Shown here: piece after piece, positions 5,272-64,000 of the stretch
How positions within the stretch are numbered: position 1 is the stretch's first letter
Layout: every line of letters starts with the position of its first letter
Assembly (NCBI GenBank): GCA_030429725.1
Contig: JAUIEX010000001.1
Span: 3,684-67,683, forward strand
Direction: 5' to 3'
Length of the DNA stretch: 64,000 nt
From: Alphaproteobacteria bacterium
GTDB taxonomy: Bacteria > Pseudomonadota > Alphaproteobacteria > Rickettsiales > UBA8987
Notes under the pieces: model-generated
The model's database searches: none
What the model was told of the DNA's origin: nothing
What the model saw: the letters and a program-made list of their open reading frames with translations, nothing else
Translations under genes and position numbers: made by a program

Positions 5272-5274
5272 GAC

Positions 5275-6925: not shown

Positions 6926-7018
6926 CACCGCACTTAACCGACATTAATGGTCTATGATTCTGGCGCTTTGCCGGATGATCTGGTAATGCTGGGCAAAATA
7001 CCTTATGTGGAAAAGATC

Positions 7019-8395: not shown

Positions 8396-8397
8396 GT

Positions 8398-10569: not shown

Positions 10570-10619
10570 CGGAGCATCCAGTGTTTTTATAAGGCAGAAC
10601 CGAGAATCCGAATCTCAGT

Positions 10620-14489: not shown

Positions 14490-14490
14490 T

Positions 14491-22397: not shown

Positions 22398-22949
22398 TCA
22401 GGTGGTTGCGGCGCGATTCAGGTTATGCAACTTATGTAGATCCTGCACCAGTTGATTCCCAATTTCACCACCACTTCCCTTCATCTTTTGCTTAAAGACC
22501 AGCTGAAGCGCATTACTGTGAAGCTTAAGAATTTCTCTGCCACGCGGCTGATGAATATCTTCATCTGTCAGAAAAACATAGAATGAACGGGAAATTTCCG
22601 TGGCCAATGGATAATCATTCATCCCGGCGGAACCTTTAATATTCAGAATCGCGTCGCATAATTCAACATAATGCTCCGTATTTTTATCCAGCGCCTCAAC
22701 AAATAATTCGAATGATTTTTTAAAACGCTCAAGCTCCGGACGGATAATTTGATCGTAGCTTTCCTTCACCTTTTCGATATTTTTTTGCGCGGAATCAATT
22801 TCTTTCTTAGTAATCACGGAGCTTATTGAAACGCTGCCGATCTTCTCCTTAATCAAATTCTTTCCCTTCACGATAGTCGCGCCGGAAGAATGCGTTTTAG
22901 AATCTTCAACTAAATCAGCATCAATCATCAGTTCTTCTGGAGGTGTCAT
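22398..22949 (-). CDS. Hypothetical helical protein with an Hpt-like signature lacking the phospho-accepting His
   Basis: AILNIKGSAGMNDYPLATEI resembles the Hpt consensus H-x-x-KG-x-A-G, but Asn replaces the His. Start overlaps the upstream receiver gene's stop (TAATG). Confidence 0.5.
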   Translation of the reverse strand: MTPPEELMIDADLVEDSKTHSSGATIVKGKNLIKEKIGSVSISSVITKKEIDSAQKNIEKVKESYDQIIRPELERFKKSFELFVEALDKNTEHYVELCDAILNIKGSAGMNDYPLATEISRSFYVFLTDEDIHQPRGREILKLHSNALQLVFKQKMKGSGGEIGNQLVQDLHKLHNLNRAATT

Positions 22950-29598: not shown

Positions 29599-30495
29599 TT
29601 AAACCGCCTCTGCACCGGCCACAATTTCTGTCAGCTCGGTCGTAATTGCCGCCTGACGTGAACGGTTATATTGCAATGTCAGCTTCTGAATCATTTCCCC
29701 GGCATTGCGCGTGGCATTATCCATCGCCGTCATCCGCGCACCTTGTTCGGAAGCGGCATTTTCCAGCATTGCCTTGTAAATCTGCACCGCAACATTGCGC
29801 GGCAGCAAATCTTTGAGAATTTCCGCTTCGCCCGGTTCATATTCATACACCGCATCCAATCCGGAAGCCTGCGGCTGATCATCCTTGGCCGCATCCGCAT
29901 CCACTTCCAGCGGCACTAAAGACTGCACCTGCACTTCCTGCGTCAGCGCATTAACAAATTTATTATAAATGATGGAACAACCGTCAATTTTTTCGCCTTC
30001 AAACGCCGCAAGCACACGATCCGCCACTTCCTGCGCATGCTCATAGCTTGGCTGCTTTCCATCATACGCCACCAGACGCTCCGTCACGTAAGATGAAAAA
30101 TCCGCCTTCAGAAGATCATAGCCTTTTTTGCCCACCAGCAATATCTGCACCGCCTCGCCTTTCTTTTCCCGCTCAAGAATCTGCACCCGCGCCGCCTTGG
30201 CAATGGAGCCGTTGAAGCCACCGCACAACCCACGATCCGCCGTTGCCACAATCAGCAAATGGTTGGGCTTGGCCGATTCCCGCCCCACCAGAAGCTTCGG
30301 GGCATTATCGGCATTCACCTTGCCGGCAAGTGTGGCCAGCATCCGCGCCATCTTCTCGGCATAAGGCCGGCCGGCCTCGGCACGCTCCTGCGCGCGCTTC
30401 AGCTTGCTGGCCGCCACCATCTTCATCGCCTTGGTAATCTTCTGCGTGGATTTAACGCTACCAATCCGAATTTTCAGTTCTTTCAGACTTGCCAT
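29599..30495 (-). CDS. atpG: F1 ATP synthase gamma subunit
   Basis: MASLKELKIRIGSVKSTQKITKAMKMVAASKLKRAQ... and a conserved C-terminal helix. Confidence 0.93.
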   Translation of the reverse strand: MASLKELKIRIGSVKSTQKITKAMKMVAASKLKRAQERAEAGRPYAEKMARMLATLAGKVNADNAPKLLVGRESAKPNHLLIVATADRGLCGGFNGSIAKAARVQILEREKKGEAVQILLVGKKGYDLLKADFSSYVTERLVAYDGKQPSYEHAQEVADRVLAAFEGEKIDGCSIIYNKFVNALTQEVQVQSLVPLEVDADAAKDDQPQASGLDAVYEYEPGEAEILKDLLPRNVAVQIYKAMLENAASEQGARMTAMDNATRNAGEMIQKLTLQYNRSRQAAITTELTEIVAGAEAV

Positions 30496-30497: not shown

Positions 30498-31001
30498 CTA
30501 TATCCCAATACTTTTCTTTGACTGCAATTTTGTATTCAGCTTTCTTACTGAGGCCATAGCTTTTTGGTGATGTGTTTCAAGTTTTTCCTCAAGCTCATTA
30601 TAATCTTTAGCACTAATGCCAACAGGCGCATTCATTTGCTCCTCAAGAATCTTCTTGTTGTCTGGAAAAGTGACTCCTTTTTCACCAAGCGCCTTTTGGG
30701 CTTTTGCTTTTTCTAATGACTCAGACCTAACAAAATAAAAAAGGCTTGTTAGGTATTTTGCCTGATCCTCTGGTGAAATTTCTTCACTTGAAACATTTGG
30801 CTTAACGTAAATAACATACTCATCTTTATCGTTAAAATTGACCTCAACACCACCATTTTCAAGATCACTTTTTTTGCCAACAAAAACTTCCCAGGCATCA
30901 TCTCCAAAGTCTGGCATACCTTGCTCACGGTCACGCAACACCGCGTAATATTCGAGAAGATTTTCTAATACCTTAGCTTTTAAAGTGTTTTCATCTGCCA
31001 T
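30498..31001 (-). CDS. Hypothetical acidic soluble protein inserted between atpA and atpG
   Basis: 167-aa ORF at ~35% G+C. Its stop codon lies 2 nt before the atpG ATG. No motif recognised. Confidence 0.6.
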   Translation of the reverse strand: MADENTLKAKVLENLLEYYAVLRDREQGMPDFGDDAWEVFVGKKSDLENGGVEVNFNDKDEYVIYVKPNVSSEEISPEDQAKYLTSLFYFVRSESLEKAKAQKALGEKGVTFPDNKKILEEQMNAPVGISAKDYNELEEKLETHHQKAMASVRKLNTKLQSKKSIGI

Positions 31002-31039: not shown

Positions 31040-32578
31040 CTACTTACTCGGCGCAAAAGCTTTGGTGAACGCTTCCAGAACTTCTTTGAGTGTCTTCTCG
31101 GAATCTTCGCTCAGCGCTTTTTCTTTACGAATCGCCGTCAGCAGCTTCTTCTGCTTGGCATGCAGCTCGGAAAGCAGCTCTTTCTCATAGCGGCTAACAT
31201 CCGCCGCCGGCACTTTGTCCAGATAGCCTTTGGTTCCGGCATAAAGCACACAGGTCTGCTCTTCCACTTTCAGCGGTGAGTATTGATCCTGCTTCAGCAA
31301 TTGCGTCAAACGCGCACCGCGATCCAGCAATTGCTTGGTGGAAGCGTCCAGATCGGAGCCAAACTGCGCGAATGCCTCCATCTCACGGAACTGTGCCAGC
31401 TCAAGCTTCACCGAACCAGCCACTTTCTTAATGGCCTTGGTTTGCGCCGCCGAACCCACACGGGATACGGAAAGCCCAACATTCACCGCCGGACGAATCC
31501 CCTTATAGAACAATTCCGTTTCAAGGAAAATCTGCCCATCGGTAATGGAAATCACGTTGGTTGGAATATAGGCGGAAACGTCACCCGCCTGTGTTTCAAT
31601 GATTGGCAGCGCGGTCAGTGAGCCGGCGCCCAGATCATCGGAAAGCTTGGCCGCACGCTCCAGCAAACGGGAGTGCAGATAGAACACATCTCCCGGATAA
31701 GCCTCACGCCCGGGAGGACGCCGCAGCAGCAGTGACATCTCACGATACGCCACCGCATGCTTGGAAAGATCATCATACACCACCAGCGCATGCTGGCTGT
31801 TATCACGGAAATATTCACCAATCGCACAGCCGGTATAGGGCGCTAAAAACTGAAGCGGCGCCGCTTCAGAAGCCGTAGCCGCCACCACCACGGAATAACG
31901 CAGCGCATCTTCTTCTTCCAGCTTCTTCACAATCTGCGCCACGGTGGAGCGCTTTTGCCCGATACAAACATAGACACAGTAAAGCTTTTCGTTTTCATCA
32001 TCGCCGTCATGGGCAGGTTTCTGATTCAGAATCGCATCAATTGCCACGGCGGTTTTACCCGTTTGACGGTCACCAATGATCAATTCCCGCTGGCCACGCC
32101 CAATCGGAATCAGCGCATCCACGGCTTTAATTCCGGTTTGCACCGGCTCATGCACGGATTTACGCGCGATAATGCCCGGCGCTTTGACTTCCACACGGGT
32201 CTTCTTCACATTTTTCAGCGGGCCTTTGCCATCAATCGGGTTTCCCAAACCGTCCACAACACGGCCAAGCATCCCCGGCCCCACCGGCACTTCCACAATA
32301 CGGCCGGTACGTTTGGCGGTGTCACCTTCCTTGATCTTATCGGAATTACCGAAAAGCACGACACCCACATTATCTTCTTCCAGATTCAGCGCCATGCCAA
32401 CCACGTCATTCGGGAAGGCAATCAGCTCCCCCGCCATCACGTCATCCAGACCGTAAATGGTGGCGATACCATCCCCCACGGACAGAATCTGCCCCGTCTC
32501 GGAAAGCTCCGCACCGGCATCAAAGCCCGCAACCTGCTTTTTAATAATATCGGTGATTTCTGAAGGACGAATGCTCAT
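31040..32578 (-). CDS. atpA: F1 ATP synthase alpha subunit
   Basis: Walker [10 protein letters not shown]. Collinear with AtpA along its full length. Confidence 0.96.
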
Positions 32579-35223: not shown

Positions 35224-37323
35224 ATGAGTGTAAATTTTGACGCTGCTTATTACTTAGCACAAAACCCGGACGTTGCTGCCGCAGGCATTGACGCATTAGC
35301 GCACTACCAACAATTTGGTTTTGCCGAAGGCCGTGACCCGAACGCATTTTTTGATACATCATATTATCTGGCGCAAAACCCGGATGTGGCCGCTGCGGGC
35401 ATTGACCCTCTGGCACACTTTAACGCCAATGGCGCAACCGAAGGCCGTGACCCGAACCCCTTCTTTGATACATCTTATTACCTTTCTCAAAATGGTGACG
35501 TTGCCGCTGCCGGCGTGAACGCACTGCAACACTACATTGAAAACGGCGCTACCGAAGGCCGCACCGTCAGTGCTTTCTTCGATGTAACCTATTATCTGGC
35601 ACAAAATGCCGATGTGGCCGCTGCCGGTGTAAACCCACTGCTCCACTTCATTCAGAATGGTGCCGCCGAAGGCCGTGATCCAAATGCAAGCTTCGACATG
35701 AGCGCTTATCTGGCCGCCGACGTGGGCGCTGCTGCTGCCGTAGCCGCGGGCAACACGGCCGGCATCATCAGCGAGCTGGCAACGGATGCCGCTGCACGCG
35801 TGAATGCATTAATCGCTGCCGGAACTTCAGCCAGTGATGCACAAGCGGCTATTAATGCAAATGCCGCAGCAACCAACACAACATCTTCCGGTGGCTCCGG
35901 CGGAACGGCACAAACCGGCAAGGTTGGCGCTACTGTTGCTACCGGCAACACCACGCTGACACTGGCCGGCGCTTCCGATGGCAACGTTGTGGTTGACCTG
36001 ACCAAAGGTACGGGCGCTACGGACGTTGTTGTGGATAATAGTGAAGATGTTATCCGCACCGGCGCCGGAACATACACCGCCGGTACAACCATTAACGTGA
36101 ACGCCGCCACCATGACTAATGGCTCATTGACGGTGACAACGAACGGCACCGGCACACCAACCATCACAACAGGTATTACCGCCACCACTGTGAGCGGCAC
36201 GGCAACTGCCGCCAACGTGGATGCAGAAGTGCTGGCCGACGATACTGCACTGACACTTTCCGGCGCCACAAACTACACCGTGACCAATATGGAAGGTAAT
36301 GTTGTTGCAACATCTCTGACAGGCACATTGGCCGTGACCACAGACGATGCTACGGATGACGGTATCTCCATTACCACCGGTTCCGGCGCAACCAGCCTGA
36401 CAGCAAATAATGCTTCCGACACGGTAACCGTTGTTGCAACAGCACTGGCCGATGGCACGGCACTGACAGTGGCCGCCGCTTCGGCTTCTGATCTGACCAT
36501 CACCGGCCTGCAAGGTGATCTGGTAGCAACCAATCTTTCCGGTGATTTGAGCGTAACTTCCGTTGCCGTTGCAACGCAGTCTATCGCCACGGGTTCAGGC
36601 ACCAACACCCTGACTGCCGACGCGCTGACCGATGGTCAGGTGCTGACAGTGACCGGTGATGATGCCGCAACGGTTACATTGGTTGCCGGTGACCTGGCAG
36701 CCGGTGCTTCCACCGGCGACCTGACCGTTACAGCCACCACGGGTACCAACGTGATTACAACCGGTGACGGTTCCGATACCATCACAGGTGGCACGGGCGA
36801 CGATAACATCACTGCCGGTAACGGTGTTGATACCATTCAAATCGCCTTTGGTGGTGAAGGTGAAGATACCTTCACAAGCTTCACCGTGGGTGCCGGTGCC
36901 AACCGTGATATCATTGATTTCACCGGTGCAACCGATGTTGCCAACGTTTCTACGGCTGGTGGCTTTGTTCTGCAAGCTAACGCGGATAACGCCAACACGG
37001 CGGCCACGAACGGCTTAACCATCATTGACAATAATGATGGCGCCAACACCAGCGCCACCGACCTGACGGTTGGTAACGTTGCGACTTATCTGGCAGATAC
37101 GGATGCCGGCGGCGCTAATACGGATGCGATTATTTATGAAAACATCAACTCCATCATTTACTTGATTGTTTCCGACGGTACGGATTCTGCCTTGTTCAAG
37201 GCGGATGCAACCGGTAACGGTGACACGGTGATTGACTCCAACGAGCTGACACTGATCGGCACTTTTGCCGGCATTACCGACGCCGGCACGATCACGGCAG
37301 ATAACTTCGCAGACTTTGCGTAA
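35224..37323 (+). CDS. Large secreted repetitive protein: N-terminal 38-aa tandem repeats, T/A/G-rich beta-helix-like core, RTX-like GGxGxD segment
   Basis: GGAGG ribosome-binding site. Four and a half repeats of FDxxYYLAQNPDVAAAGxxxLxHxxxxGxxEGRDPNxF. TGDGSDTITGGTGDDNITAGNGVDTI at ~36760-36840. Strong terminator follows. Confidence 0.8.
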   Translation: MSVNFDAAYYLAQNPDVAAAGIDALAHYQQFGFAEGRDPNAFFDTSYYLAQNPDVAAAGIDPLAHFNANGATEGRDPNPFFDTSYYLSQNGDVAAAGVNALQHYIENGATEGRTVSAFFDVTYYLAQNADVAAAGVNPLLHFIQNGAAEGRDPNASFDMSAYLAADVGAAAAVAAGNTAGIISELATDAAARVNALIAAGTSASDAQAAINANAAATNTTSSGGSGGTAQTGKVGATVATGNTTLTLAGASDGNVVVDLTKGTGATDVVVDNSEDVIRTGAGTYTAGTTINVNAATMTNGSLTVTTNGTGTPTITTGITATTVSGTATAANVDAEVLADDTALTLSGATNYTVTNMEGNVVATSLTGTLAVTTDDATDDGISITTGSGATSLTANNASDTVTVVATALADGTALTVAAASASDLTITGLQGDLVATNLSGDLSVTSVAVATQSIATGSGTNTLTADALTDGQVLTVTGDDAATVTLVAGDLAAGASTGDLTVTATTGTNVITTGDGSDTITGGTGDDNITAGNGVDTIQIAFGGEGEDTFTSFTVGAGANRDIIDFTGATDVANVSTAGGFVLQANADNANTAATNGLTIIDNNDGANTSATDLTVGNVATYLADTDAGGANTDAIIYENINSIIYLIVSDGTDSALFKADATGNGDTVIDSNELTLIGTFAGITDAGTITADNFADFA
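35236..35691 (+). repeat. Four tandem 114-nt (38-aa) coding repeats, with a degenerate fifth unit after them
   Basis: Units begin FDAAYYLAQNPDVAAAGIDAL, FDTSYYLAQNPDVAAAGIDPL, FDTSYYLSQNGDVAAAGVNAL and FDVTYYLAQNADVAAAGVNPL. Confidence 0.9.
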
Positions 37324-39760: not shown

Positions 39761-40021
39761 ATGGCTGTCCCTAAGCGTAAAACCTCGAAATCCAAGCGTA
39801 ATATGCGCCGCTCGCATCATGCACTCGGTTCCGTCACCGTGGTGGAAAACCAAACCAGCGGTGAACTTTCCCGCCCGCATCACGTTTCACCGGACGGTTT
39901 CTATAAAGGCCGTAAAGTGGTTCTGAGTGCCGACGAAATTGCCGAAGAATTAGAAAAGAAAGAAGCTGCCCCTAAAGCAGAAAAGAAAACTGAAAAAAAG
40001 GCTGAGAAAAAAGCCGCCTAA
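39761..40021 (+). CDS. rpmF: 50S ribosomal protein L32 with a ~30-aa Lys/Glu/Ala-rich C-terminal extension
   Basis: [22 protein letters not shown]... core, then ...[25 protein letters not shown]. Confidence 0.93.
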
Positions 40022-40049
40022 TTTTCAGCAATGCCCTTGCCGGGCATCA

Positions 40050-40112
40050 TTAAAAATCATGCTCAAAGCCGCCTTCTGGCGGCTTTGTTGCGTCTGGCGC
40101 ATCGTTGAGCCA
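40050..40112. repeat. Orphan 63-bp perfect duplicate of the thiL 3' end
   Basis: Identical base for base to 41038-41100 (TTAAAAATCATGCTCAAAGCCGCCTTCTGGCGGCTTTGTTGCGTCTGGCGCATCGTTGAGCCA). Contains a 9-bp hairpin, AAAGCCGCC-TTCT-GGCGGCTTT. Confidence 0.95.
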
Positions 40113-40114
40113 GC

Positions 40115-40981
40115 TTACCATTCAAATGCTAAGCTGCAGGTACGCTGCCGGCCACCATTGACTGACATAGAATAGGTTACAGGGTTCGCAGTATTGCCAA
40201 GATTGTCATAACAAGTTGACGTGCTTGCAGCGGCAGCCGTTGAGCCTGTAGCCGTACCCACCCATGCAAGTGGATAGCTTGCCGGCGCACCATTAAGCAG
40301 CCGTTGAGCTGTGATTGTACCTGTCAGCGGGTTCCCATCATCCATTTTTCTGTCGATGCCATACGCCGCTTCAACCGGCACATTATTTTGCTGGGTAAAG
40401 TTACCTAAACCAATATTATAGCCACTTAAATTAGAAGTAAGCATACCGGTCAGGCCAAAATATGGAATGCCGGCTTTATTCGTATCACTGGCACTAAAAA
40501 CAATAATATGCATGTCTGACCCTAGCCTGCTTTGGGGAAAAATCTCATGGATATTGCTGCTATCGTAATTGCCGACAGGTGCAGTACAGCTTACAGAATT
40601 TAATGTATCTCTAATATAACCAGCCACAAATAAATCGTTCCAAAACATGGTATTCTCACCGTTTTGAACGTTGCCACGATTATTTGTCGCATAACCACCC
40701 CAATTACCTTCAATAAAACCATCACCATTACCGGTTCCGGGATAAGAACCCCTTGCTTTAAAGCCGAAATCTTGAGCGTTACTGCAATCACCCGGCAGGC
40801 AGTCATATTTTGTTTGAAAACTTTGCGTTGCAGTATGATATTGCTGAATCTGAGAGACTTGGTCAGTTATTCTAGCAGCAAAAATCAGACTTTGGCCAAC
40901 GATGACCCCTGAAATAATCAAGCCCAAAATCACTAAAACAATTGATAACTCAACCAATGTAAAAGCATTTTTATTTTTCAT
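40115..40981 (-). CDS. Type IV pilin / T2SS pseudopilin-like protein (prepilin-type N-terminal methylation domain)
   Basis: MKNKNAFTLVELSIVLVILGLIISG has a class III signal-like N-terminus with Glu at +5. Cys pairs in the C-terminal half. ~40% G+C. Confidence 0.75.
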   Translation of the reverse strand: MKNKNAFTLVELSIVLVILGLIISGVIVGQSLIFAARITDQVSQIQQYHTATQSFQTKYDCLPGDCSNAQDFGFKARGSYPGTGNGDGFIEGNWGGYATNNRGNVQNGENTMFWNDLFVAGYIRDTLNSVSCTAPVGNYDSSNIHEIFPQSRLGSDMHIIVFSASDTNKAGIPYFGLTGMLTSNLSGYNIGLGNFTQQNNVPVEAAYGIDRKMDDGNPLTGTITAQRLLNGAPASYPLAWVGTATGSTAAAASTSTCYDNLGNTANPVTYSMSVNGGRQRTCSLAFEW

Positions 40982-41037
40982 TTTTCAAATAATGACTGCA
41001 AATCTGCCTGGAAAGCAAGTCACAAAGAAGCATTTTC

Positions 41038-41100
41038 TTAAAAATCATGCTCAAAGCCGCCTTCTGGCGGCTTTGTTGCGTCTGGCGCATCGTTGAGCCA
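41038..41100. repeat. The 63-bp direct repeat copy that forms the functional 3' end of thiL
   Basis: Identical to 40050-40112. Encodes the ...KPPEGGFEHDF-stop end of thiL. Confidence 0.95.
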
Positions 41101-42012
41101 CCGCACTGCTGGCTTTTCGGCATGGTTTGGTGGCGTCACCTTACCAATTAATGCCACCGCACATTCCGCTTTATCCGCCGCCGCCTGCACCATATCCCGC
41201 TTTTCCGGCGCAGCGGTAAACAGCAATTCATAATCATCCCCGCCTTGCAGCGCAATCTTCTGCGCCGCATCATCCATGCCGCCCGGCAATGCTTGCAACA
41301 ACCCAGCCATGCTAATTTCCAGATCAACCGCACTTGCTCGCGCTAACTGTTGAACATCCCCGGCAATGCCGTCAGAAATATCCATACATGATGAAGCCAC
41401 ACCCACCAGCGCACGCCCCAGCGTAATGCGCGGCTCCGGCTGGTTAAACCGCGCGATGGCCGCCGCCTGCAACATGGCATCATCCAGCGCAATCCGCTTT
41501 TGTTGCACGGCCAGCCCCAAAGCACCCAGCCCTAATTGCCCGGAAACATACACATCATCACCCGCCTGTGCGCCAATTCTGCGCAGCGCACATCCGGCAT
41601 CCACCAGCCCCAATATCGTGCAGGAAAAAATCATCCCCACCCCGGAGGCCTGCACCGTATCTCCACCCAGCAGCGCTACACCATAAGCCGATTGCCAATC
41701 CCCAAGCGCCCCACAGAAGGATTGCACCCAGCTTTCCTTGATTTTTGGTAATGCCGCCCCCAGAAAATAGCCATATGGCACGGCACCCATCGCGGCAATG
41801 TCGGATAAATTGCTGCCCATCACCCGTGCGGCGGCCACCTCCGGCAAGCAACCCGGCAAAAAATGGACGCCTTCCACCAGAACATCTTTGGTTATCACCA
41901 GCTCTTTTCCTGATGGCACATTCAACAGCGCCGCATCATCCATCAACCCTGCGGCGGCGGCATCCGTCGCAAGCGGCTTCAGATAACGGTGAATCAGCTC
42001 AAATTCCTGCAT
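41038..42012 (-). CDS. thiL: Thiamine-monophosphate kinase
   Basis: EFELIHRYLKPL N-terminus, AIR-synthase-like fold motifs (DDAALL, LGGDT). The nusB-thiL order is conserved. Confidence 0.88.
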   Translation of the reverse strand: MQEFELIHRYLKPLATDAAAAGLMDDAALLNVPSGKELVITKDVLVEGVHFLPGCLPEVAAARVMGSNLSDIAAMGAVPYGYFLGAALPKIKESWVQSFCGALGDWQSAYGVALLGGDTVQASGVGMIFSCTILGLVDAGCALRRIGAQAGDDVYVSGQLGLGALGLAVQQKRIALDDAMLQAAAIARFNQPEPRITLGRALVGVASSCMDISDGIAGDVQQLARASAVDLEISMAGLLQALPGGMDDAAQKIALQGGDDYELLFTAAPEKRDMVQAAADKAECAVALIGKVTPPNHAEKPAVRWLNDAPDATKPPEGGFEHDF

Positions 42013-42027: not shown

Positions 42028-42534
42028 TTAATCGCGATAAAATTGCGCCGCACCATCCAGCAATGCATTGACGAAGCGCGGCTCCGACTCTTCAAAAAAA
42101 GCAGCGGTAATTTTCACATAATCCGTGATGATGATTTTAGCCGGAATCTCTTCCATCATCAGCAACTCATAAATGGCAACACGCAAAATGGCATGCACCA
42201 CCGGTGTCAGCCGGCTTAAAGACCAACCCTCGGCCAGATGGCGTTCAATCACCTCATCCAACTCCGATTCCTTCTCCGTTACCCCGGCCACCAGCTTTCT
42301 GAAATAGGCACGATCCGCCTTCGGCACATCTTCCGCCTGCCCCCGACCCTGCGCCTGTTGCTCAAAGAAGCGAACCTGCTCCACCTCCATCATGTCCGGA
42401 CGATTGCCAAATTCCTGCGAATAAACCGCCTGCACCGCCATCAATCGCGCATAGGAACGTTTCGGTGGCGGCTGAACTTTAGGTGAATCTTCTCCGGAAA
42501 CCTGGCTTTCAGCGTTTGCTGCGTGATCTGTCAT
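42028..42534 (-). CDS. nusB: Transcription antitermination factor NusB
   Basis: RLMAVQAVYSQEF... and ...RLTPVVHAILRVAIYELL motifs. Confidence 0.88.
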   Translation of the reverse strand: MTDHAANAESQVSGEDSPKVQPPPKRSYARLMAVQAVYSQEFGNRPDMMEVEQVRFFEQQAQGRGQAEDVPKADRAYFRKLVAGVTEKESELDEVIERHLAEGWSLSRLTPVVHAILRVAIYELLMMEEIPAKIIITDYVKITAAFFEESEPRFVNALLDGAAQFYRD

Positions 42535-49372: not shown

Positions 49373-50206
49373 ATGGTGAATTTGTTCAAGGACTATAACA
49401 GGAGCGTGAAGCTTCCGCTTTCGCGGGACCGTCTGCCTTATGTGGACGAACTTCCCATGCTGCTTTCATGGCTGCTGGTCTACCCACTTTCAAAAACGTC
49501 CTGCCGTCCAGAATGGTTGGTTTTGCTCGGTTTCATCTGCCGTGTGGGGGTTGGCATTTTATGCACCACCGGGCAGGCATATGATGCGCTGACGATCATT
49601 CTTTTACTGGCCTCCGTCATTTTGGATTATGCCGATGGTCAGCTGGCACGCTACACAGGCCAAGTTTCCGATAAAGGCGGGCTTTATGATTTAGCATCGG
49701 ATTTTTTTGGCAGTTTCATTATGTTTGGTGGGATTTTCTTTGCTCTGATACAGCAACCTGACGCACCACTGACGGGTGATATTTTACTCTGCACCGCTGC
49801 CTTATTTGCCTACTACATTTCCTGCACGATTGCGTCTTTCACGCGTTTTCGCTGGGTGGCACACATGCGCGGAACCTCAACGCAACGCATTCGTCGAAAA
49901 TTTATTTTCGGGCAGGACGAGGCAGCACAACGCGCTCCTACATCACACAGTCATGGGTTGGTGTTGCGCCTGTTCCGCATCAGCTGGATGGCAATTTCCC
50001 GTTTGTTACTGGCATTTCCAGTATGGCGGAACCGGCCTTTTCATCCTGCAATGCTGCATCTTTACGCCTTTGGCTTTTTAAGTATTCATTGGTTTTTTCT
50101 GGCGTTTACGCTGGTGTTTAGGTTGCCACTGGAAACTTTCCTGTGGGGAGAGATCACAGTTTGTCTGGCATTATCATCAATCGTATGGCTGACGGAGCGA
50201 TCATGA
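49373..50206 (+). CDS. CDP-alcohol phosphatidyltransferase family membrane protein, specificity unknown
   Basis: Exact family signature D-x2-DG-x2-AR-x8-G-x3-D-x3-D (DYADGQLARYTGQVSDKGGLYDLASD). Polytopic. Confidence 0.72.
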   Translation: MVNLFKDYNRSVKLPLSRDRLPYVDELPMLLSWLLVYPLSKTSCRPEWLVLLGFICRVGVGILCTTGQAYDALTIILLLASVILDYADGQLARYTGQVSDKGGLYDLASDFFGSFIMFGGIFFALIQQPDAPLTGDILLCTAALFAYYISCTIASFTRFRWVAHMRGTSTQRIRRKFIFGQDEAAQRAPTSHSHGLVLRLFRISWMAISRLLLAFPVWRNRPFHPAMLHLYAFGFLSIHWFFLAFTLVFRLPLETFLWGEITVCLALSSIVWLTERS

Positions 50207-50253
50207 TGACAATGGTTCGAACTATGGGAAAAACATGCTATCATAGGCAAATT

Positions 50254-50544
50254 ATGAACCTGCAGGAATTACGAGACAATTACCGCGAAGATATCCTACG
50301 CATTGCGGCGAAATACGGGCTGACGAATGTGCGCGTGTTCGGCTCCGTTGCACGTGGTGAGGCCACGGAAAACAGCGATGTGGATCTGCTGGTCACGGCC
50401 ACAAAGCCGCTCACACTATTTGACACGTCCTCGTTTCAGCTGGATGTTGAGGATCTGGTGCACAAGAAAGTACAGATTAAGACCGATGATTATCTCAACC
50501 CGCTGATTAAAGAAAGTATTCTTGAAGGAGCGCGGCTGCTGTGA
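50254..50544 (+). CDS. mntA: MntA-type minimal nucleotidyltransferase antitoxin
   Basis: GSVARGEATENSDVDLLV (GS-x-G...D-x-D). 96 aa from the ATG at 50254. Confidence 0.85.
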   Translation: MNLQELRDNYREDILRIAAKYGLTNVRVFGSVARGEATENSDVDLLVTATKPLTLFDTSSFQLDVEDLVHKKVQIKTDDYLNPLIKESILEGARLL

Positions 50545-50870
50545 AGGATAATTATACGTATCTTCAGCATATCATGGAAGCGATTGAGAAAATTGAAAAA
50601 TACATCGCTGAGTACGGCAGAATTGACGTTTCTCAACAGGCGATTGAACGGAATATTGAAATCATCGGCGAAGCAGCAAATAATCTTTCACTGGAATTTC
50701 GCCAAACATTTCAAAATATTCCATGGCGCAAAATCATCAATATGCGCAATATTATCATTCATGATTATATGGGCATTAACCCGCTACAGATTTGGGAAAC
50801 GGTGGAAGTATATATTCCTGAACTCAAACAACAAATTTCTGCTATACTTAGAAATAGAGAGGAGACCTAA
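50541..50870 (+). CDS. hepT: HepT (DUF86) HEPN-domain RNase toxin
   Basis: R-x4-H motif (RNIIIHDY). GTG start overlaps the mntA stop (GTGA). Confidence 0.85.
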   Translation: MKDNYTYLQHIMEAIEKIEKYIAEYGRIDVSQQAIERNIEIIGEAANNLSLEFRQTFQNIPWRKIINMRNIIIHDYMGINPLQIWETVEVYIPELKQQISAILRNREET

Positions 50871-50873
50871 CCC

Positions 50874-52802
50874 ATGCCAAGCTACAACGCGCCGATTAGA
50901 GATTATCAATTTGCCCTAAATGAATTCCTTGAAATTCAGCAATATCAGGGTGTTGTGCCCGGTTATGATGATCTTTCGATTGTTGACCCTATTTTGGAAG
51001 AAAGCGCGCGCTTCTCGCAGGAAGTGCTGTTTCCGCTCAATCAAACGGGCGATGAGCAGGGTCTGAAATATGGCACGGACGCGGATGGAAGAGGCACGGT
51101 GACCCTGCCAGATGGCTTCGTGGATGCTTATCAGGCTTATGTGGAAGCGGGCTGGCCCAGCTTTGCCTGCGACCCGGAATATGGCGGGCAGGGCCTGCCA
51201 CATGTGGTCAACACACCGCTGATTGAGATGATCTGCTCCGCCAATCTTTCCTTCGGCCTGCTGCCCGGCCTGACCCATGGCGCCTATACTGCGCTGCATT
51301 TATTCGGCACGGATGAGCAAAAACAGCATTACCTGCCCAAGCTCACCAGCGGGGAATGGACGGGCGTGATGTGCCTGACGGAGCCTCAGGCCGGGACGGA
51401 TCTTGGCTTGCTGCGCACCACCGCCACCCCCAAAGATGATGGCAGCTATGCCATTAACGGCACTAAGATTTTTATCAGCTGTGGGGAACAAGACGCCACC
51501 CCAAACATCATCCATCTCATCCTCGCCCGCCTGCCCGGCGCGCCGGAGGGTGTCAAAGGCATCAGCTTATTTGTTGGCGCAAAATATAATCTGGATGCAA
51601 ACGGCGAAATGGCGGAGCGGAATAACATCTCCTGCGGCTCGTTTGAACATAAAATGGGCATCCATGCCAGCCCCACCTGCGTGATGAATTATGATGATGC
51701 CAAAGCGTATCTGGTGGGTGAACCGCATAAAGGCCTGCGCGCCATGTTCGCCATGATGAACGAAGCGAGATTGCTGGTGGGCATGCAGGGGCTGGGTGTG
51801 GCAGAAGTGGCCTATCAGAACGCCCTTGAATATGCCAAGGAGCGTTTGCAAGGACGCGCCTTAAAAGGTGCTGCATTGCCTAATAAACCGGCAGACCCCA
51901 TCACCGTGCACCCGGATGTGCGGCGCATGTTGCTGACCATGAAAAGCTTCACCGAAGGCGCGCGCATCCTTGCCTGCTGGACGGCGCTGCATGTGGATTT
52001 CAGCCATAATCACCCGGATGAAGAACAACGCGCGGGGTCCGATGAATTTGTGCAGCTGATGACACCCATCGTCAAAGCGCATCTGACCGAGGAAGGAACG
52101 CGCACCGCCAACACCGCCGTGCAGGTGCTGGGTGGCTATGGCTACATCAAGGAATATGGCGTGGAACAATATCTGCGTGATGCCCGCATTGCCGAAATTT
52201 ATGAAGGCACGAACGGCGTGCAGGCACTTGATCTGGTGGGGCGCAAGCTGGGCATGAATACCGGCCGCCTGCTGCGCCGCTTCTTCCACCCGGTGGAAGC
52301 ATTCATCACCGAAAATCGTGACGTGCCGGAGATGGCGGAATTCACCAAGCCGCTCTATCAGGCGTTCCGTTCACTCCAGCAATCTTCCATGTGGATCGCG
52401 CAGAAAGGTCTTTCCAACAAAGATGAGGCCGCCGGTGCTTCGGCAGATTATCTGCGCCTGTTCAGTTTGGTCACGCTTGGCTATATCTGGGCGCGTTCAG
52501 CGAAAATTTCTTTGGAGAAGTTGGGTAAGTTCCCCCCCACCGAGTCACTACGCTCCTCGACTCCCCCACAGGTGGGGAGTAATAGTTCCGCGTCCCTTAA
52601 CTCCCCCTCGATGGGTGAGTCTGATTCTGGAACAGAATCAGGTGGGGGTGAAGAGATCGACTCCGACTTCTACGAAGCCAAACTCGCCACAGCGCGTTTT
52701 TACCTTAACAAGATCCTGCCCGAGCATTACAGCCTGATCGCCAAAATTGTTGCCGGCGTCAAGCATCTGGACATGCCGGAGGTGGCACTCAAATCCGCTT
52801 AA
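50874..52802 (+). CDS. Long-form acyl-CoA dehydrogenase (~600-aa family) carrying a ~43-aa in-frame insertion in the C-terminal domain
   Basis: ACAD N-terminal, middle and C-terminal domains (GVMCLTEPQAGTDL, EIYEGTNGVQALDLVGRK) plus a C-terminal extension ...FYEAKLATARFY. Confidence 0.9.
   Translation: MPSYNAPIRDYQFALNEFLEIQQYQGVVPGYDDLSIVDPILEESARFSQEVLFPLNQTGDEQGLKYGTDADGRGTVTLPDGFVDAYQAYVEAGWPSFACDPEYGGQGLPHVVNTPLIEMICSANLSFGLLPGLTHGAYTALHLFGTDEQKQHYLPKLTSGEWTGVMCLTEPQAGTDLGLLRTTATPKDDGSYAINGTKIFISCGEQDATPNIIHLILARLPGAPEGVKGISLFVGAKYNLDANGEMAERNNISCGSFEHKMGIHASPTCVMNYDDAKAYLVGEPHKGLRAMFAMMNEARLLVGMQGLGVAEVAYQNALEYAKERLQGRALKGAALPNKPADPITVHPDVRRMLLTMKSFTEGARILACWTALHVDFSHNHPDEEQRAGSDEFVQLMTPIVKAHLTEEGTRTANTAVQVLGGYGYIKEYGVEQYLRDARIAEIYEGTNGVQALDLVGRKLGMNTGRLLRRFFHPVEAFITENRDVPEMAEFTKPLYQAFRSLQQSSMWIAQKGLSNKDEAAGASADYLRLFSLVTLGYIWARSAKISLEKLGKFPPTESLRSSTPPQVGSNSSASLNSPSMGESDSGTESGGGEEIDSDFYEAKLATARFYLNKILPEHYSLIAKIVAGVKHLDMPEVALKSA
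52527..52655. repeat. Intragenic palindromic element, same family as 692-966, read in frame within the acyl-CoA dehydrogenase
   Basis: Terminal inverted repeat TTCCCCCCCACC (52530-41) against GGTGGGGGTGAA (52641-52), 11/12. Internal hairpins at 52560-52580 (7 bp) and 52621-52641 (9 bp perfect). Confidence 0.65.
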
Positions 52803-59290: not shown

Positions 59291-59886
59291 GCTTCCAGCG
59301 CTGAATTCTCCAACCCCTGCCATCTTTTAACCTTCAGCATCGGCACTTCCAGATCGAACATATCCAGCACCCGCGCCACGGTGTGATTCACTAAATCATC
59401 TATTTTTTCCGGCTTACTATAAAAAGCCGGCACCGGCGGGGCAATCACCGCACCCATATCGGATAAGGTCACCATATGCCTTAAATGCACGGATGTCAGC
59501 GGCGTTTCCCGCGGCAATAAAATAAGCCGCCGCCGCTCTTTAAGCATCACATCCGCCGTGCGGGAAAGTAAATTTGCACTATAGCCCAACGCAATTTCTG
59601 CCAGTGTCTTCATCGAACAGGGAGCAACCACCATCCCCATCATTTTAAATGAACCGCTGGCGGTGCAGGCGCCCACATCCCCAATCGCATAGCTATGCGC
59701 AGCCTTGGCCTGCACCTCGGAAACGGATAGTCCCACCTCCTGCTTCACTGTCAGCGCTGCGGCCTTGGTCATCATCAGATGCGTTTGCACGCCCGCCTCC
59801 GCCAATGCCTCCAGCAACCGCACACCATAAACCGCGCCCGAAGCACCGGTGATGCCCACTGCCAGATGTTTTATCTCATTCCCCAT
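59287..59886 (-). CDS. ubiX: Flavin prenyltransferase UbiX
   Basis: GITGASGAVYG N-terminus, flavoprotein fold. ATG at 59886 preferred. Confidence 0.88.
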   Translation of the reverse strand: MGNEIKHLAVGITGASGAVYGVRLLEALAEAGVQTHLMMTKAAALTVKQEVGLSVSEVQAKAAHSYAIGDVGACTASGSFKMMGMVVAPCSMKTLAEIALGYSANLLSRTADVMLKERRRLILLPRETPLTSVHLRHMVTLSDMGAVIAPPVPAFYSKPEKIDDLVNHTVARVLDMFDLEVPMLKVKRWQGLENSALEA

Positions 59887-59961
59887 AATTTCTACCCACA
59901 GATGCTTGACATTCATTTCTCAGCCTTCAATATAAGCAAAAAAATAAAGGTGAACAGGATT

Positions 59962-60462
59962 ATGAAAATCATTACAGTTATTTTAAGTGGGCTTCTTATC
60001 ATTGCCGGCAGCGCCAACGCACAGTCACTGGATAGCACCCATAAAAACTGGAATGTCTTTACCATCAATCAAACCGGTAAAAAAATCTGCTACATGACCT
60101 CCGTTCCAACCGATAAAAAGGGCAATTACCGCCGCCGGAACGAGCCTTATGCCCTCATTACCTACCGTGGCAATAACGTCTCCGAAGTCAGCTTTTCCTC
60201 CGGATATCCTTATAAAAAGAACGGCATTGTGAAGCTGGATGTGGAAGGCAAAATAAAGAGCGACCTTTTCACCACGGAAGAAACCCCCCGCATTGCCTGG
60301 GCGAAGGATGCCGCGGAGGATAAGAAACTGGTTGAAGCAATGAAGGCCGGCTCCAAGATGACCGTGCGTGGTGATTCCCGCCTTAAAACCTACTCTATCG
60401 ACACCTACAATCTCTCCGGCTTCACCGCCGCGTATGAGCGTATGATCAAGGTCTGCAATTAA
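59962..60462 (+). CDS. Invasion-associated locus B (IalB) family periplasmic protein
   Basis: Signal peptide ...AGSANA. W-x-V-x...C pattern (KNWNVFTINQTGKKICYM). ~166 aa. Confidence 0.75.
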   Translation: MKIITVILSGLLIIAGSANAQSLDSTHKNWNVFTINQTGKKICYMTSVPTDKKGNYRRRNEPYALITYRGNNVSEVSFSSGYPYKKNGIVKLDVEGKIKSDLFTTEETPRIAWAKDAAEDKKLVEAMKAGSKMTVRGDSRLKTYSIDTYNLSGFTAAYERMIKVCN

Positions 60463-60515
60463 TTTTCTCGACTCACTGATTGATTCTTCATCCCCATTGT
60501 CTTTATGATGGCAGG

Positions 60516-61184
60516 ATGTGGATTCTTGCCGCCGACACCTGTTTTCCAACACCCTCCGTTGCCCTGATGCATCAGGGCAGGTTAGTGGAAACCGCCTTCT
60601 GTGAAAGCAAGCAACACACGGTGGAGCAGCTGGTGCCGCATATGGCAGCCATCCTTGAAAAACACCATCTCAGCACCGCCGATATCGCCCTGATGGCGGC
60701 CACCATCGGCCCCGGCGGGTTCAGCGGCGTCCGGCTGGCAATGACAGCCATCAAAGGCTATGCCCTGCCTCATGGCACGCCAACCTCAGGGTTCACGTCG
60801 CTGGAAGTGCTGGCCTTCGCCGTTAAGCAATCATCTCAGCATCACGCCGCCACCATCGCGCTGAATGCCGCACGCGGGCAATGTTATGTTCAGTCCTTTG
60901 ATCTGCAACCTGCCACACCCGAAGCAACCGATACCATCGCGCTGGTGGATTATGCCGCTATCCCGTCCCACACGCAAAATCCGATCTTTACCGATGCCGA
61001 AGCATCCATCGGGCACAACGCGCAGATTTTTCCGCTGCCGGAAAGCTCCGCCGCCACACTGGCCGCTTTATGCCATCAACGGCACATGTCCGGGCAACAG
61101 GCACAGAAACTTGGCGTTCCGCTGCATATTCGCCCGGCCGACGCAAAAGCCGCAAAAGCCCCCCTCATCTATGGAGCAGCCTGA
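60516..61184 (+). CDS. tsaB: tRNA t6A37 modification protein TsaB
   Basis: ILAADT...SVAL N-terminus and GPGGFSGVRLAMTAIKG motif. tsaB-rimI synteny. Confidence 0.85.
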   Translation: MWILAADTCFPTPSVALMHQGRLVETAFCESKQHTVEQLVPHMAAILEKHHLSTADIALMAATIGPGGFSGVRLAMTAIKGYALPHGTPTSGFTSLEVLAFAVKQSSQHHAATIALNAARGQCYVQSFDLQPATPEATDTIALVDYAAIPSHTQNPIFTDAEASIGHNAQIFPLPESSAATLAALCHQRHMSGQQAQKLGVPLHIRPADAKAAKAPLIYGAA

Positions 61185-61185
61185 T

Positions 61186-61638
61186 ATGGAGCAGCCCTTT
61201 TATATTCGCCCCATTGAAGAAAAAGACATCTCCGGGCTGGCCACCTTACACAGCGCCTGCTTCACCAAAGATTGGGGACAAAAAGAATTAAGAAACTTGC
61301 TGGATCATGGGGTGATCGGCTTTGTTGCCACCGATGATAACGCCACCATCTGCGGCTTTGTGCTGGCGCGTATTGTGCTGGATGAGGCCGAGATTATCTC
61401 CATCGGCGTGCTACCGGAAAAACGGAAACATGGCCTGGCCGAAAACATGATGCGCCATTTGCTGGCGCATGAAGCCTGCGTTGATGTGCGCGCGCTCTTC
61501 ATTGAGGTGGAAGCCTTCAATGACGCGGGAAAACGCCTCTATGAGAAGCTTGGCTTTCAACGCACCGGCTCCCGCAAAGGCTATTATGAAATTGCCGGAC
61601 AGCGGATTGATGCGATCACCATGACACTCACCTTATAA
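61186..61638 (+). CDS. rimI: Ribosomal-protein-alanine N-acetyltransferase (GNAT)
   Basis: GNAT motif A (VLPEKRKHGLAENMMRHLL). An alternative in-frame ATG exists at 61171. Confidence 0.85.
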   Translation: MEQPFYIRPIEEKDISGLATLHSACFTKDWGQKELRNLLDHGVIGFVATDDNATICGFVLARIVLDEAEIISIGVLPEKRKHGLAENMMRHLLAHEACVDVRALFIEVEAFNDAGKRLYEKLGFQRTGSRKGYYEIAGQRIDAITMTLTL

Positions 61639-61656
61639 AACTGCTATACTTCGCTT

Positions 61657-63378
61657 ATGGCCGATATCAAAGAACCTCAGAAAAACCCCCTGGTAAGGGT
61701 TATTGTACTGTTCAGCGCGGCAATGCTGCTGCTGAATATCGGCATTATCGTCAAGCGTGCTTATACCAGCTACGACTCCACGATTGAGAATGGCATGACG
61801 GAATCCGAGCGGATTGCCCGCACCGTGGCCGATCATACCCGCCTGACCTTTCTTGGTGTGGATCTGGTCTTAAAACGCGCCATTGAGCGCCAGTATTTCA
61901 ATGCCTTATTTGGAAAAACACTCAATCAGGATATCAACCTGAACCTGTTTAACTGGACAACGGAAACGCCGCAAATTGCTGCCATGTTAATGACGGATAA
62001 AGACGGTGAAATTCAGGCCATGGCGCGCAAACCACTTTTTCAGACATGGCTGGAAGGCACAACATCCGTTGCCAATCGCAGTTTCTTTTCCGCACATCTT
62101 GACCATAGCGATAGCGAGTATTTTCACATTAGCTGGCAACAAAGCTGGATGCAGAATCAGGAAGACTTCATTGTTATTTCCCGCCCGATTACCAATCTTG
62201 ACGGCACATTTGGCGGGGTGGTGGCCGCTGCTATCCCCAGCAACTATATCCTTAACTTCTTTCACAGCATCGATAATTATAGCCATACTCAGATGGCGCT
62301 GTTTCATGTGGATGGCAGTATTCTGGCGGATGCGCTGGATAGCGAGATGGAAATGGCCACCATTAAAAGCATCGTCAATGACGAAAACCTGCTGAAAGTT
62401 CCCAAGCAACATACCATCCTGTTGCAGGCGGCGGAAGGCACGCCTCTCAGAGCCATTGCATCACACCCCATCCCAAGCCTTGACCTGCTGATTACCGTCA
62501 TTGTTTCCGGGGACGATATCTTCACCCGCTGGGACGAGGAGCGCGTCAATGACATCCTCTTCCTGATGGTGTTTGTGCTGTTTGCACTGGTCATTTCTCT
62601 ATTTGCACTGGCCGTGGCGCGGCAAATGCATCGCGTTAAACTCAGCGAGACATCCGCCGTGATGGCCAATCAGGCAAAATCCGAGTTTCTGGCCAATATG
62701 AGCCATGAACTTCGCACGCCACTAAACGCTATCATCGGATTTTCTGAAATGCTTGGCTCCGGCTTTTTCGGTAATATCAACGGCAAACAGAAAGAGCGCC
62801 TGATTGACATCCATGATTGCGGCACGCACCTGCTTTCATTGATTAATGACATTCTTGAATTTTCAAAAGCCGATGCCGGCAAGCTGGACCTGCACGCCGT
62901 AAAAATGGATGTTTGCGCCATTGCCCAGCAATCCGTACGTATGTTCATGGAAAAAGCCGCCAGAGACGGCATTGGTCTAAGCTTCATCAGCCAGCCGGAA
63001 TCCATCCCGTTGATGGCCGATGAGCGAAAGATTAAGCAAATCTTCCTGAACCTTATTTCCAATGCCATGAAGTTCACCGAAGCCGGCGGGGAGATTGAAG
63101 TCAGCTGCATTCTGGAAAATAACGCCGCCATTCTTACCGTGGCGGATACCGGCATCGGCATGAAGGAATCGGATATTCCCAAGGCACTTTCCCCTTTCAG
63201 TCAGGTGCATCAGGAACACGCCGCCGGCGGCACCGGCTTAGGGCTGCCACTGTGCAAAATGTTTGCCGAACTGCATGGCGGCACGCTTTATATCCAAAGC
63301 GTTGTGGGCGTTGGCACAAAGGTTAGCATTCACCTGCCTGCGGAGCGCACGCTCAAATCTCTCATGCGCGAAAAATAA
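61657..63378 (+). CDS. Sensor histidine kinase with a periplasmic (Cache-like) sensor domain; no cognate regulator adjacent
   Basis: Two TM helices flanking a ~270-aa loop. H-box SHELRTPLNAI, N-box LISNAMKFT, G1 DTGIGM, G2 GGTGLGLPL. Confidence 0.88.
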   Translation: MADIKEPQKNPLVRVIVLFSAAMLLLNIGIIVKRAYTSYDSTIENGMTESERIARTVADHTRLTFLGVDLVLKRAIERQYFNALFGKTLNQDINLNLFNWTTETPQIAAMLMTDKDGEIQAMARKPLFQTWLEGTTSVANRSFFSAHLDHSDSEYFHISWQQSWMQNQEDFIVISRPITNLDGTFGGVVAAAIPSNYILNFFHSIDNYSHTQMALFHVDGSILADALDSEMEMATIKSIVNDENLLKVPKQHTILLQAAEGTPLRAIASHPIPSLDLLITVIVSGDDIFTRWDEERVNDILFLMVFVLFALVISLFALAVARQMHRVKLSETSAVMANQAKSEFLANMSHELRTPLNAIIGFSEMLGSGFFGNINGKQKERLIDIHDCGTHLLSLINDILEFSKADAGKLDLHAVKMDVCAIAQQSVRMFMEKAARDGIGLSFISQPESIPLMADERKIKQIFLNLISNAMKFTEAGGEIEVSCILENNAAILTVADTGIGMKESDIPKALSPFSQVHQEHAAGGTGLGLPLCKMFAELHGGTLYIQSVVGVGTKVSIHLPAERTLKSLMREK

Positions 63379-63436
63379 AATACTGCACCGCAGCGCAAAG
63401 GCGCTTGTCATCCCATCAGCACTTCGCTACACCGTA

Positions 63437-63940
63437 ATGGTGGATGCGCTTACCATACATAGTTATTTCGTTGAATATCCGGAATCAAAATGGCTGGTGG
63501 CCGCCGCTGTCTTTTTCCTTATTGAAGTGCTGATAATTCCCGGTGTGGGCATGTTCTTTGCCGCGCTGGCGGCCTTAATGCTCGGCACGCTCATCCTGCT
63601 GGGCGTGGTGGCAACGGATTCTTTCACGCTGGAGGTGGCCATCTGGTTTGGCCTGACAGTGTTCTGGGCGGCAGTGCTGTGGAAACCCCTGAAAAACATG
63701 CGCTCTAAAAACACCGAAGATAATGATGTGTATCGTGGAACATCCGCCACGGTGGAGCGCGAACCGTTAAGAAGAGGTGAAACCGGCATGATCCGCTGGA
63801 GCGGCAGCAGTTCTCGCGCAATGTTGCGTGCGGAAAGTGAGCATGCGTTTTTAGATGTTGGCCAGAAATGCTGGGTGTGGGAAAAACAAGGCGCTTATCT
63901 GATTGTGGATGCTGCCATACCACCAAAACAAAATCATTAA
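63437..63940 (+). CDS. NfeD-family membrane protein
   Basis: Three N-terminal TM helices plus a C-terminal OB-like soluble domain (GTSATVEREPLRRGETGMIRWSGSS). Confidence 0.72.
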   Translation: MVDALTIHSYFVEYPESKWLVAAAVFFLIEVLIIPGVGMFFAALAALMLGTLILLGVVATDSFTLEVAIWFGLTVFWAAVLWKPLKNMRSKNTEDNDVYRGTSATVEREPLRRGETGMIRWSGSSSRAMLRAESEHAFLDVGQKCWVWEKQGAYLIVDAAIPPKQNH

Positions 63941-63959
63941 TTTTCAAAAGGATTCTACC

Positions 63960-64000
63960 ATGACAGACCCCGGATCATTGCTTCTTTTTGTCATCACCTT
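63960..64000 (+). CDS. Start of a gene truncated by the window edge; possibly the SPFH/flotillin partner of NfeD
   Basis: ATG at 63960, then MTDPGSLLLFVIT... The call rests only on the usual nfeD-SPFH pairing. Confidence 0.25.
   Translation, partial: MTDPGSLLLFVIT

Follow-up and report, generated by a model that had tools for sequence, protein, structure and literature searches.

A single prepilin-type gene between two copies of the thiL 3′ end in an alphaproteobacterial genome: a candidate for a small gene-end cassette

In a 64-kb stretch of an alphaproteobacterial genome (contig JAUIEX010000001.1; "the window" hereafter, 64,000 nucleotides in full), we found a 925-bp insert with a single prepilin-type gene between rpmF, the gene for ribosomal protein L32, and thiL, the gene for thiamine-phosphate kinase. 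The insert is bracketed by two identical copies of the last 63 nucleotides (nt) of thiL. One copy, R1, is the functional end of an intact thiL gene; the other, R2, is an orphan that lies between the insert and rpmF. The insert is foreign in composition, encodes no recombinase, and has both of its junctions represented in an independent assembly. The reading that we prefer, to which we give about an even chance, is that a small cassette of ~1 kb integrated at the end of thiL by a Campbell-type crossover.

The direct repeat (40050–40112 and 41038–41100) is identical at all 63 positions. An exhaustive search of the window for exact direct repeats with a spacing below 6 kb returned only two outliers, this repeat and one of 27 nt at thiC, against a background maximum of 16 nt. 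With the next-longest direct repeat at only 16 nt, a chance origin of the 63-nt repeat is excluded. Further degenerate copies of the thiL or thiC repeat were not found in the window, no homology extends past the repeat ends, and the thiL repeat sequence is absent from IMG/VR. Translated, the repeat yields 20 residues, WLNDAPDATKPPEGGFEHDF, that match the conserved C-terminus of ThiL in alignment, its invariant histidine (His322) included. It follows that the repeat is true host coding sequence and that thiL is intact. As in integrative elements, direct repeats bracket the insert and one of them is the 3′ end of the target gene; judged from its full-length product, the target gene appears to have been reconstituted after the insertion. 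The thiL gene comes after nusB (42028–42534), the same order as in other Alphaproteobacteria. Two nucleotides upstream of R2, the stop codon of the pilin gene closes the R2 frame; downstream, R2 is followed by 2 nt, a short hairpin (40031–40047) and the end of rpmF.

The G+C content of the insert is 42.7%, compared with 51.8% for the window, and the G+C content at third codon positions (GC3) of its open reading frame (ORF) is 0.36, compared with 0.56 to 0.65 for thiL, nusB, murA, guaA, and atpA. The insert is thus compositionally foreign. It contains no gene fragments, and neither this insert nor the one at thiC has terminal inverted repeats above background. An earlier note on this stretch had described the perfect repeat at the thiL 3′ end with the coordinates given here, a 925-bp insert, a single prepilin ORF in thiL orientation, and a hairpin inside the repeat, all of which we recovered; its figure for the G+C content was ~40%. 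The insertion between rpmF and thiL that it proposed fits both the foreign composition and the genuine ThiL C-terminus encoded by the repeat, and its wording that perfect identity points to a recent event or to gene conversion is still a fair statement.

For an independent assembly we turned to the Logan unitigs (k = 31) of run ERR3428548; the cassette unitig is present in two samples. A 985-bp unitig corresponds to window positions 40083–41067, that is, the insert with exactly 30 nt (k − 1) of each repeat copy, and the unitig bearing rpmF terminates exactly 30 nt into the left copy. Because a k = 31 graph gives these ends for a true 63-nt repeat, both cassette/repeat junctions are present in the reads. 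The unitigs fit the integrated form and, just as well, an empty site accompanied by a 988-bp circle. As this circle would simply be the element after excision, the biological conclusion holds in either case.

The palindrome within the repeat, CAAAGCCGCC-TTCT-GGCGGCTTTG, has 10-bp arms and a 4-nt loop. On the rpmF strand this hairpin is followed by TTTGTTG; on the thiL strand the T-run is 8 nt away and less convincing. The short hairpin at 40031–40047, previously taken to be the rpmF terminator, is doubtful in that role, as it has no T-run and was not flagged by a terminator scan. From its sequence, the repeat hairpin would be the better candidate, and the R2 palindrome is likely a bidirectional terminator that serves rpmF. 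In the ancestral layout that we envisage, the hairpin would have been a shared terminator embedded in the thiL end. After the duplication, a copy would have been kept behind rpmF, with one hairpin on each side of the pilin gene.

Table 1. Positions of the features at the thiL and thiC loci (window coordinates)
Feature	Position	Strand	Description
rpmF (ribosomal protein L32)	39761–40021	+	Convergent on thiL; Pfam Ribosomal_L32p, E 9e-23
Short hairpin between rpmF and R2	40031–40047	.	6-bp stem, without T-run
R2	40050–40112	-	Orphan thiL 3′ end between cassette and rpmF; 63/63 identity
24-nt palindrome in R2	40064–40087	.	10-bp arms, 4-nt loop; fold z-scores -4.0 to -5.6
Insert (cassette), 925 bp	40113–41037	-	56-nt leader, one ORF, then 2 nt
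Prepilin-type (type IV pilin/pseudopilin-like) gene	40115–40981	-	288 aa, complete; Pfam N_methyl, TIGR02532
Leader, 56 nt	40982–41037	-	thiL stop codon to pilin ATG; from the sequence and a promoter scan
R1	41038–41100	-	Functional thiL 3′ end, last 20 codons + TAA; 63/63 vs 40050–40112
R1 counterpart of the 24-nt palindrome	41052–41075		
thiL (thiamine-phosphate kinase)	41038–42012	-	Intact; TIGR01379, E 6e-79; AIRS/AIRS_C domains
thiC 3′ end	1018–1049	+	30/32 vs 1845–1876; repeat ends 1 nt after TAA
thiC insert, 795 bp	1050–1844	+	One ORF (1055–1747), 230 aa, membrane-anchored
Orphan thiC 3′-end copy	1845–1876	+	Differs by GGT>GGG (Gly>Gly) and TAA>TGA (stop>stop)

The prepilin gene and its relatives

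The product of the cassette gene has the N-terminal motif of the prepilin superfamily, with a PF07963 score of 27 bits (cut-off 21.2) and a match to TIGR02532. Its family is large and well conserved; we retrieved 535 homologues, the best at 45% identity, with invariant Cys, Asp, and Gly columns. The C-terminal end is common to the homologues and the window protein, so the gene is complete. The AlphaFold2 (AF2) model (predicted local distance difference test score, 86) consists of a long N-terminal helix (residues 9–59, ~50 residues) and a beta head; a fold search of the PDB with this model returned no significant match (best E 2.8). The 64-kb window holds no other prepilin gene and no pilus or type II secretion system gene. 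A promoter scan of the leader revealed no convincing promoter or Shine-Dalgarno sequence upstream of the pilin gene, which, to judge from its position, could be expressed by read-through from thiL.

For repeats bracketing the gene, we screened the pilin family at 80 metagenomic loci, 57 of which had usable flanks, and at six more. The only bracketing repeats stemmed from tandem paralogues, in which conserved N- and C-terminal coding segments recur. Among the loci screened, the footprint seen at thiL is therefore specific to this genome and is not a property of the pilin family. Elsewhere, the homologues occur in tandem arrays, behind ccmB, and inside a pst operon with parDE; three distant matches, at 28 to 30% identity, are on small mobilizable plasmids. 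GenBank phages gave no match and IMG/VR only two distant ones. The family is essentially absent from phages and the gene is a frequent traveller. Single foreign genes inside operons seem common in the carriers of this family.

The pst operon in question belongs to an uncultured bacterium (ENA ERZ27257032, k141_184579, 5046–10605; also GCA_005779685.1) and has the order pstC, pilin homologue, parD, parE, pstA, two unknown ORFs, pstB. Its pilin homologue overlaps pstC by 8 nt and has no flanking repeats. Solitary distant pilin genes are found on the Frigidibacter mobilis plasmid pcai42B and the Acuticoccus sp. plasmid p4_MNP-M23 (19–31 kb). Their neighbours there are a ParD antitoxin gene and genes for the relaxase or for replication; pilus machinery is not encoded close by.

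Relatives of the host genome are remote. Among 5.8 billion proteins the closest ThiL sequences are 45 to 49% identical, and a ThiL search of genome contigs returned only relatives at 41% identity or less. Two distant relatives have unrelated convergent genes behind nusB-thiL, an arrangement that says nothing about rpmF. A Logan contig from SRR24442552, a biofloc aquaculture metagenome (PMC10582022), is 100% identical to window positions 59702–64000 (4299 bp), so it allows no strain comparison, and a nusB look-up for a divergent strain found nothing on record. The project behind SRR24442552 differs from that of ERR3428548, and on these matches the organism is a deep-branching alphaproteobacterial lineage that recurs clonally.

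A second insert, at thiC, and other features of the window

The second case that the earlier note had described, at thiC, stands: a repeat that matches at 30 of 32 positions flanks a 795-bp insert with one ORF. The thiC gene (23–1048, + strand) extends past the start of the window and ends at 1048. Its insert has a G+C content of 31% and its ORF a GC3 of 0.26; the encoded protein has no Pfam, NCBIfam, or PHROG match and no homologue among the 5.8 billion proteins. Both mismatches are at the distal end of the repeat and silent in the thiC frame, and the chance that two random substitutions would both be silent is about 0.04 to 0.05. Such silence would be expected of a copy with a history as coding sequence in a different background, in the manner of icd and icdC at e14 (PMC13626634). 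The thiC case is older than the thiL case. The thiC repeat has no palindrome, a core shared by the two repeats is not significant (p about 0.11), and the two cassettes have no end sequences in common.

Of the ~60 genes in the window, no thiamine genes other than thiC and thiL were recognized, and each of these two bears a cassette. For two random gene ends this coincidence has a probability of ~1e-3, a value calculated post hoc; the coincidence is unexplained and is not evidence of targeting. With no significant common motif in the repeats and no shared cassette ends, the suggestion that thiamine genes are targeted or that the inserts are co-regulated with them finds no support beyond the coincidence.

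Foreign genes may have accumulated downstream of thiC in a small accretion zone. Right after the orphan thiC end is a DUF2335 membrane-protein gene (2133–2591, +) that matches phrog_3996 ("moron / host takeover") at E 8e-30, and this gene is followed by a surface-polysaccharide cluster (Wzy_C/PMT_2/PAP2). ThiC itself contains, at about residues 220 to 320 and ahead of its conserved C-terminal end, a long insertion of low complexity in which Ser, Gly, Pro, and Asp abound.

Several other features of the window were recorded. In the ATP synthase operon, a 167-aa ORF with a GC3 of 0.31 (30498–31001, - strand) lies between atpA (31040–32578) and atpG (29599–30495) and ends 2 nt before the atpG start. 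It has no Pfam, PHROG, or PADLOC match and no flanking repeat except an 8-nt sequence, AAATGGCA, at both start codons. Two more low-G+C genes on the minus strand encode a multi-pass membrane protein of ~197 aa (13968–14561, between a PAPS reductase gene and a glycine-transporter-family gene) and a 183-aa protein (22398–22949, adjoining a response regulator gene). Both are set among housekeeping genes and have neither a family match nor flanking repeats. A 699-aa protein with an RTX calcium-binding repeat match is encoded at 35224–37323 (+), and its gene contains three tandem 114-nt units (35324–35665) with 68 to 74% identity to the first. A small nucleotidyltransferase of the MNT-antitoxin type (NTP_transf_2/Polbeta; 50143–50544, +) is found at the edge of a low-G+C stretch (50401–51000).

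Origin of the thiL insert

The element that we propose would have been a horizontally acquired unit of ~1 kb that joined one prepilin-type gene to a duplicate of the final 63 nt of thiL. One reciprocal crossover between this segment and its chromosomal counterpart would have inserted the element, whose replacement 3′ end would have kept thiL intact (R1), while the other copy would have been left beside rpmF as the orphan R2, where its hairpin would still terminate rpmF transcription. The same process would earlier have put a different element, the 795-bp single-gene cassette, at thiC. As the element encodes no recombinase, the crossover would have been catalyzed in trans by a recombinase whose gene lies at another place in the genome or on a helper element, or by RecA acting on the 63 bp of homology. 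The reverse reaction, or a RecA-dependent loop-out between the repeats, would restore the direct convergence of rpmF and thiL and release a 988-bp circle. With perfect 63-nt repeats we predict measurable loop-out, so that the presence or absence of the pilin gene would be polymorphic in populations. Three parts of this scheme are inferences on our side: the enzyme, a circular intermediate, and the direction in which the event ran.

Several observations argue for this reading. Exact direct repeats bracket a foreign single-gene insert, and the pilin family belongs to the mobile gene pool. The order of gene, repeat, foreign DNA, and repeat is the expected product of a single reciprocal crossover when a circle and a chromosomal site share a segment. 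The thiL repeat stops at the last base of the stop codon and the thiC repeat 1 nt beyond it, which is the boundary that an element-borne copy restoring the reading frame would give; an insertion without a replacement copy would truncate an essential part of ThiL. The compact insert and the perfect repeats favor recent integration of the unit at its present size over decay from a larger element. Other results weigh against a Campbell-type integration. Pfam searches of essentially all window ORFs of at least 120 aa found no integrase, excisionase, transposase, resolvase, or relaxase among the ~60 ORFs, and no integrative and conjugative element (ICE) or prophage is nearby; Rfam and transfer RNA (tRNA) scans of the 64-kb window gave no match. 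The thiL and thiC repeats have no significant core in common (p about 0.11), and the thiC repeat has no palindrome. Duplication of a host 3′ end was seen at none of the 57 usable metagenomic loci of the pilin family and at none of the six further loci. The nearest ThiL, at just 45 to 49% identity, leaves no relative with the ancestral junction to compare. How the element first acquired its copy of the host 3′ end is unexplained. Since a significant shared core and shared cassette ends are lacking and only the thiL repeat has a palindrome, a single dedicated site-specific recombinase for both inserts is unsupported; RecA acting on 63 or 32 bp, or different recombinases in trans, would be the candidates.

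We considered whether the unit could instead be the decayed remnant of a larger ICE, integrative and mobilizable element (IME), or prophage whose tyrosine integrase targeted the thiL 3′ end, with deletions leaving one cargo gene between two attachment (att) sites, that is, a cis-mobilizable element (CIME) in the strict sense. The repeat architecture is identical to that of attL and attR, and integrase-less elements flanked by att sites are common at the 3′ ends of rpmG, rpsI, fda, and rplL, with sizes of 1.2 to 13 kb and down to 130 to 220 bp (PMC7563491). A history of deletion sits poorly with an insert free of gene fragments and of surplus non-coding DNA (apart from the gene there are only the 56-nt leader and the 2 nt past the stop codon), with repeats still so perfect that little time was available for a clean deletion, with two such neat single-gene units within 64 kb, and with a window that holds neither a parental element nor an integrase. 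We consider this origin unlikely. We rate in the same way, as improbable, a one-step illegitimate insertion in which foreign DNA was caught at a staggered break, or by template switching during replication at the thiL end, and fill-in or re-copying duplicated 63 nt (and 32 nt at thiC). It would make the identity of the copies automatic and would suit the different repeat lengths (63 and 32 nt), the lack of a recombinase, and the lack of a common core, and the strong hairpin in the repeat could stall replication. What it leaves unexplained are the two ends at stop codons and the silent, distal mismatches at thiC. In addition, none of the junctions shows microhomology, a hairpin is absent from the thiC repeat, and duplications of 32 to 63 nt are far longer than known bacterial target-site duplications. 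Four features favor, from the sequence, an element-borne 3′ end over a repair duplication: the stop-codon ends, the intact host gene, the silent distal thiC mismatches, and the combination of compactness with perfect repeats.

Import from a conspecific donor that carried the pilin gene directly behind its thiL stop codon, by homology-facilitated illegitimate recombination with a crossover in thiL and an illegitimate joint 63 nt upstream of the recipient's stop codon, strikes us as very unlikely. The stop-codon boundary would then simply be the donor's original insertion point, no dedicated recombinase would be needed, and the thiC mismatches could reflect alleles that differed between donor and recipient. 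Yet two independent events must have placed their illegitimate joints in the final 63 nt of one gene and the final 32 nt of the other, the joints have no microhomology, and the donor-type arrangement was seen nowhere in the loci examined. The explanation to which we give least credence, as highly improbable, is an assembly artefact in which the chromosome reads rpmF-R-thiL and the cassette, on a separate molecule, was threaded in through the shared 63-nt node. A graph with k = 31, or with any k below 64, indeed gives the same result for both topologies. However, both cassette/repeat junctions occur in the independent assembly in two samples, the separate molecule would have to be a 988-bp circle that shares precisely the thiL 3′ end and would equal the excised element, and the thiC structure, whose repeat is shorter than k, is contiguous in an independent Logan contig.

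Integration by a Campbell-type crossover could also be generalized. In that broader and distinctly doubtful version, the genome would host a class of recombinase-free single-gene cassettes of ~1 kb that use the last codons of housekeeping genes as an integration handle and insert reversibly behind the stop codon through RecA or a recombinase in trans, an integron-like economy without an integron. Such a class may have a link to thiamine genes and may be the source of many of the foreign single ORFs in the operons of this genome. If a 1-kb circle does move without a recombinase of its own, it would be among the smallest cargo-carrying integrative units known outside integrons, and it would show how, in a compact genome, accessory genes can come and go one at a time behind essential genes that themselves stay undamaged. 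Should the insert be no more than what is left of an ordinary integrative element, it would illustrate att-site duplication neatly, but in a routine way.

Comparison with known gene-end elements

Some familiar types of element do not describe the insert. We rejected a transposon or insertion sequence, given the lack of terminal inverted repeats and of a transposase and the duplications of 63 and 32 nt. We also rejected a self-sufficient integrative element; the prepilin gene is the sole ORF of the insert, which contains no integrase, and the window ORFs have no recombinase domain. An integron gene cassette was set aside because the window has no IntI-type recombinase; the repeat does contain GCTCAA...TTGAGC, without an integron context.

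Integron cassettes and the pdif modules of Acinetobacter are single-gene units of ~1 kb with little non-coding DNA and a structured site, and the enzyme that moves them is encoded elsewhere. The thiL unit resembles them in its size of ~1 kb, its one gene, and its lack of a recombinase of its own. It is unlike them in that it has no intI/attI and in that its repeat is thiL coding sequence rather than attC, present as direct copies of a host gene end. Inspected by eye for a 28-bp XerC/XerD-type site, the repeat shows no obvious dif-like CATAAT...TTATG centre.

Islands of the tycheposon type in Prochlorococcus carry flexible genes beside a conserved gene, are split by partial copies of its 3′ end, and include degenerate integrase-less remnants (bioRxiv 10.1101/2020.12.28.424599). 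Unlike the thiL unit, tycheposons target tRNA genes, measure several kb, and encode a tyrosine recombinase and replication genes. Another case is CR2-sul2, a small integrase-less unit that excises from and integrates at the attB site at the guaA 3′ end through the GIsul2 integrase acting in trans (PMC9376610). CR2-sul2 shares a defined att core with GIsul2 and has a known helper, whereas the thiL and thiC cassettes have no known helper and their repeats are unrelated.

Streptococcal CIMEs and microCIMEs have direct att repeats at the 3′ ends of rpmG, rpsI, fda, and rplL, lack integrase and transfer genes, and may carry cargo (PMC7563491). The thiL unit likewise has flanking repeats, which would be its putative att sites, and no recombination or transfer genes. 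CIMEs are deletion derivatives of ICEs or IMEs and usually occur in tandem with one; the thiL unit has no visible parent, remnant, or tandem partner, and the marks of such a deletion, gene fragments in the insert or an ICE or IME in the 64 kb, were not found. On this count it does not qualify as a CIME in the strict sense. It is smaller than the "classical" CIMEs (1.2–13 kb), yet it contains an intact gene.

A precedent in arrangement is the integration of e14 and phage 21 at the 3′ end of Escherichia coli icd (PMC13626634, citing Hill et al. 1989). There the element supplies a replacement 3′ end, the orphan icdC is left at the opposite end of the element, most differences between the copies are silent or conservative, and excision recombines the copies. 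Both e14 and the thiL unit leave an intact target gene and a stranded original 3′ end. They differ in that e14 is ~15 kb long with its own integrase and excisionase, whereas the thiL unit is 0.93 kb long with one cargo gene, no recombinase, and a perfect 63-nt repeat. By this analogy, the thiL unit would follow the same logic as e14 at icd and the integrase-less CIMEs at gene ends, and would be unusual only in its tiny size and its absent recombinase gene.

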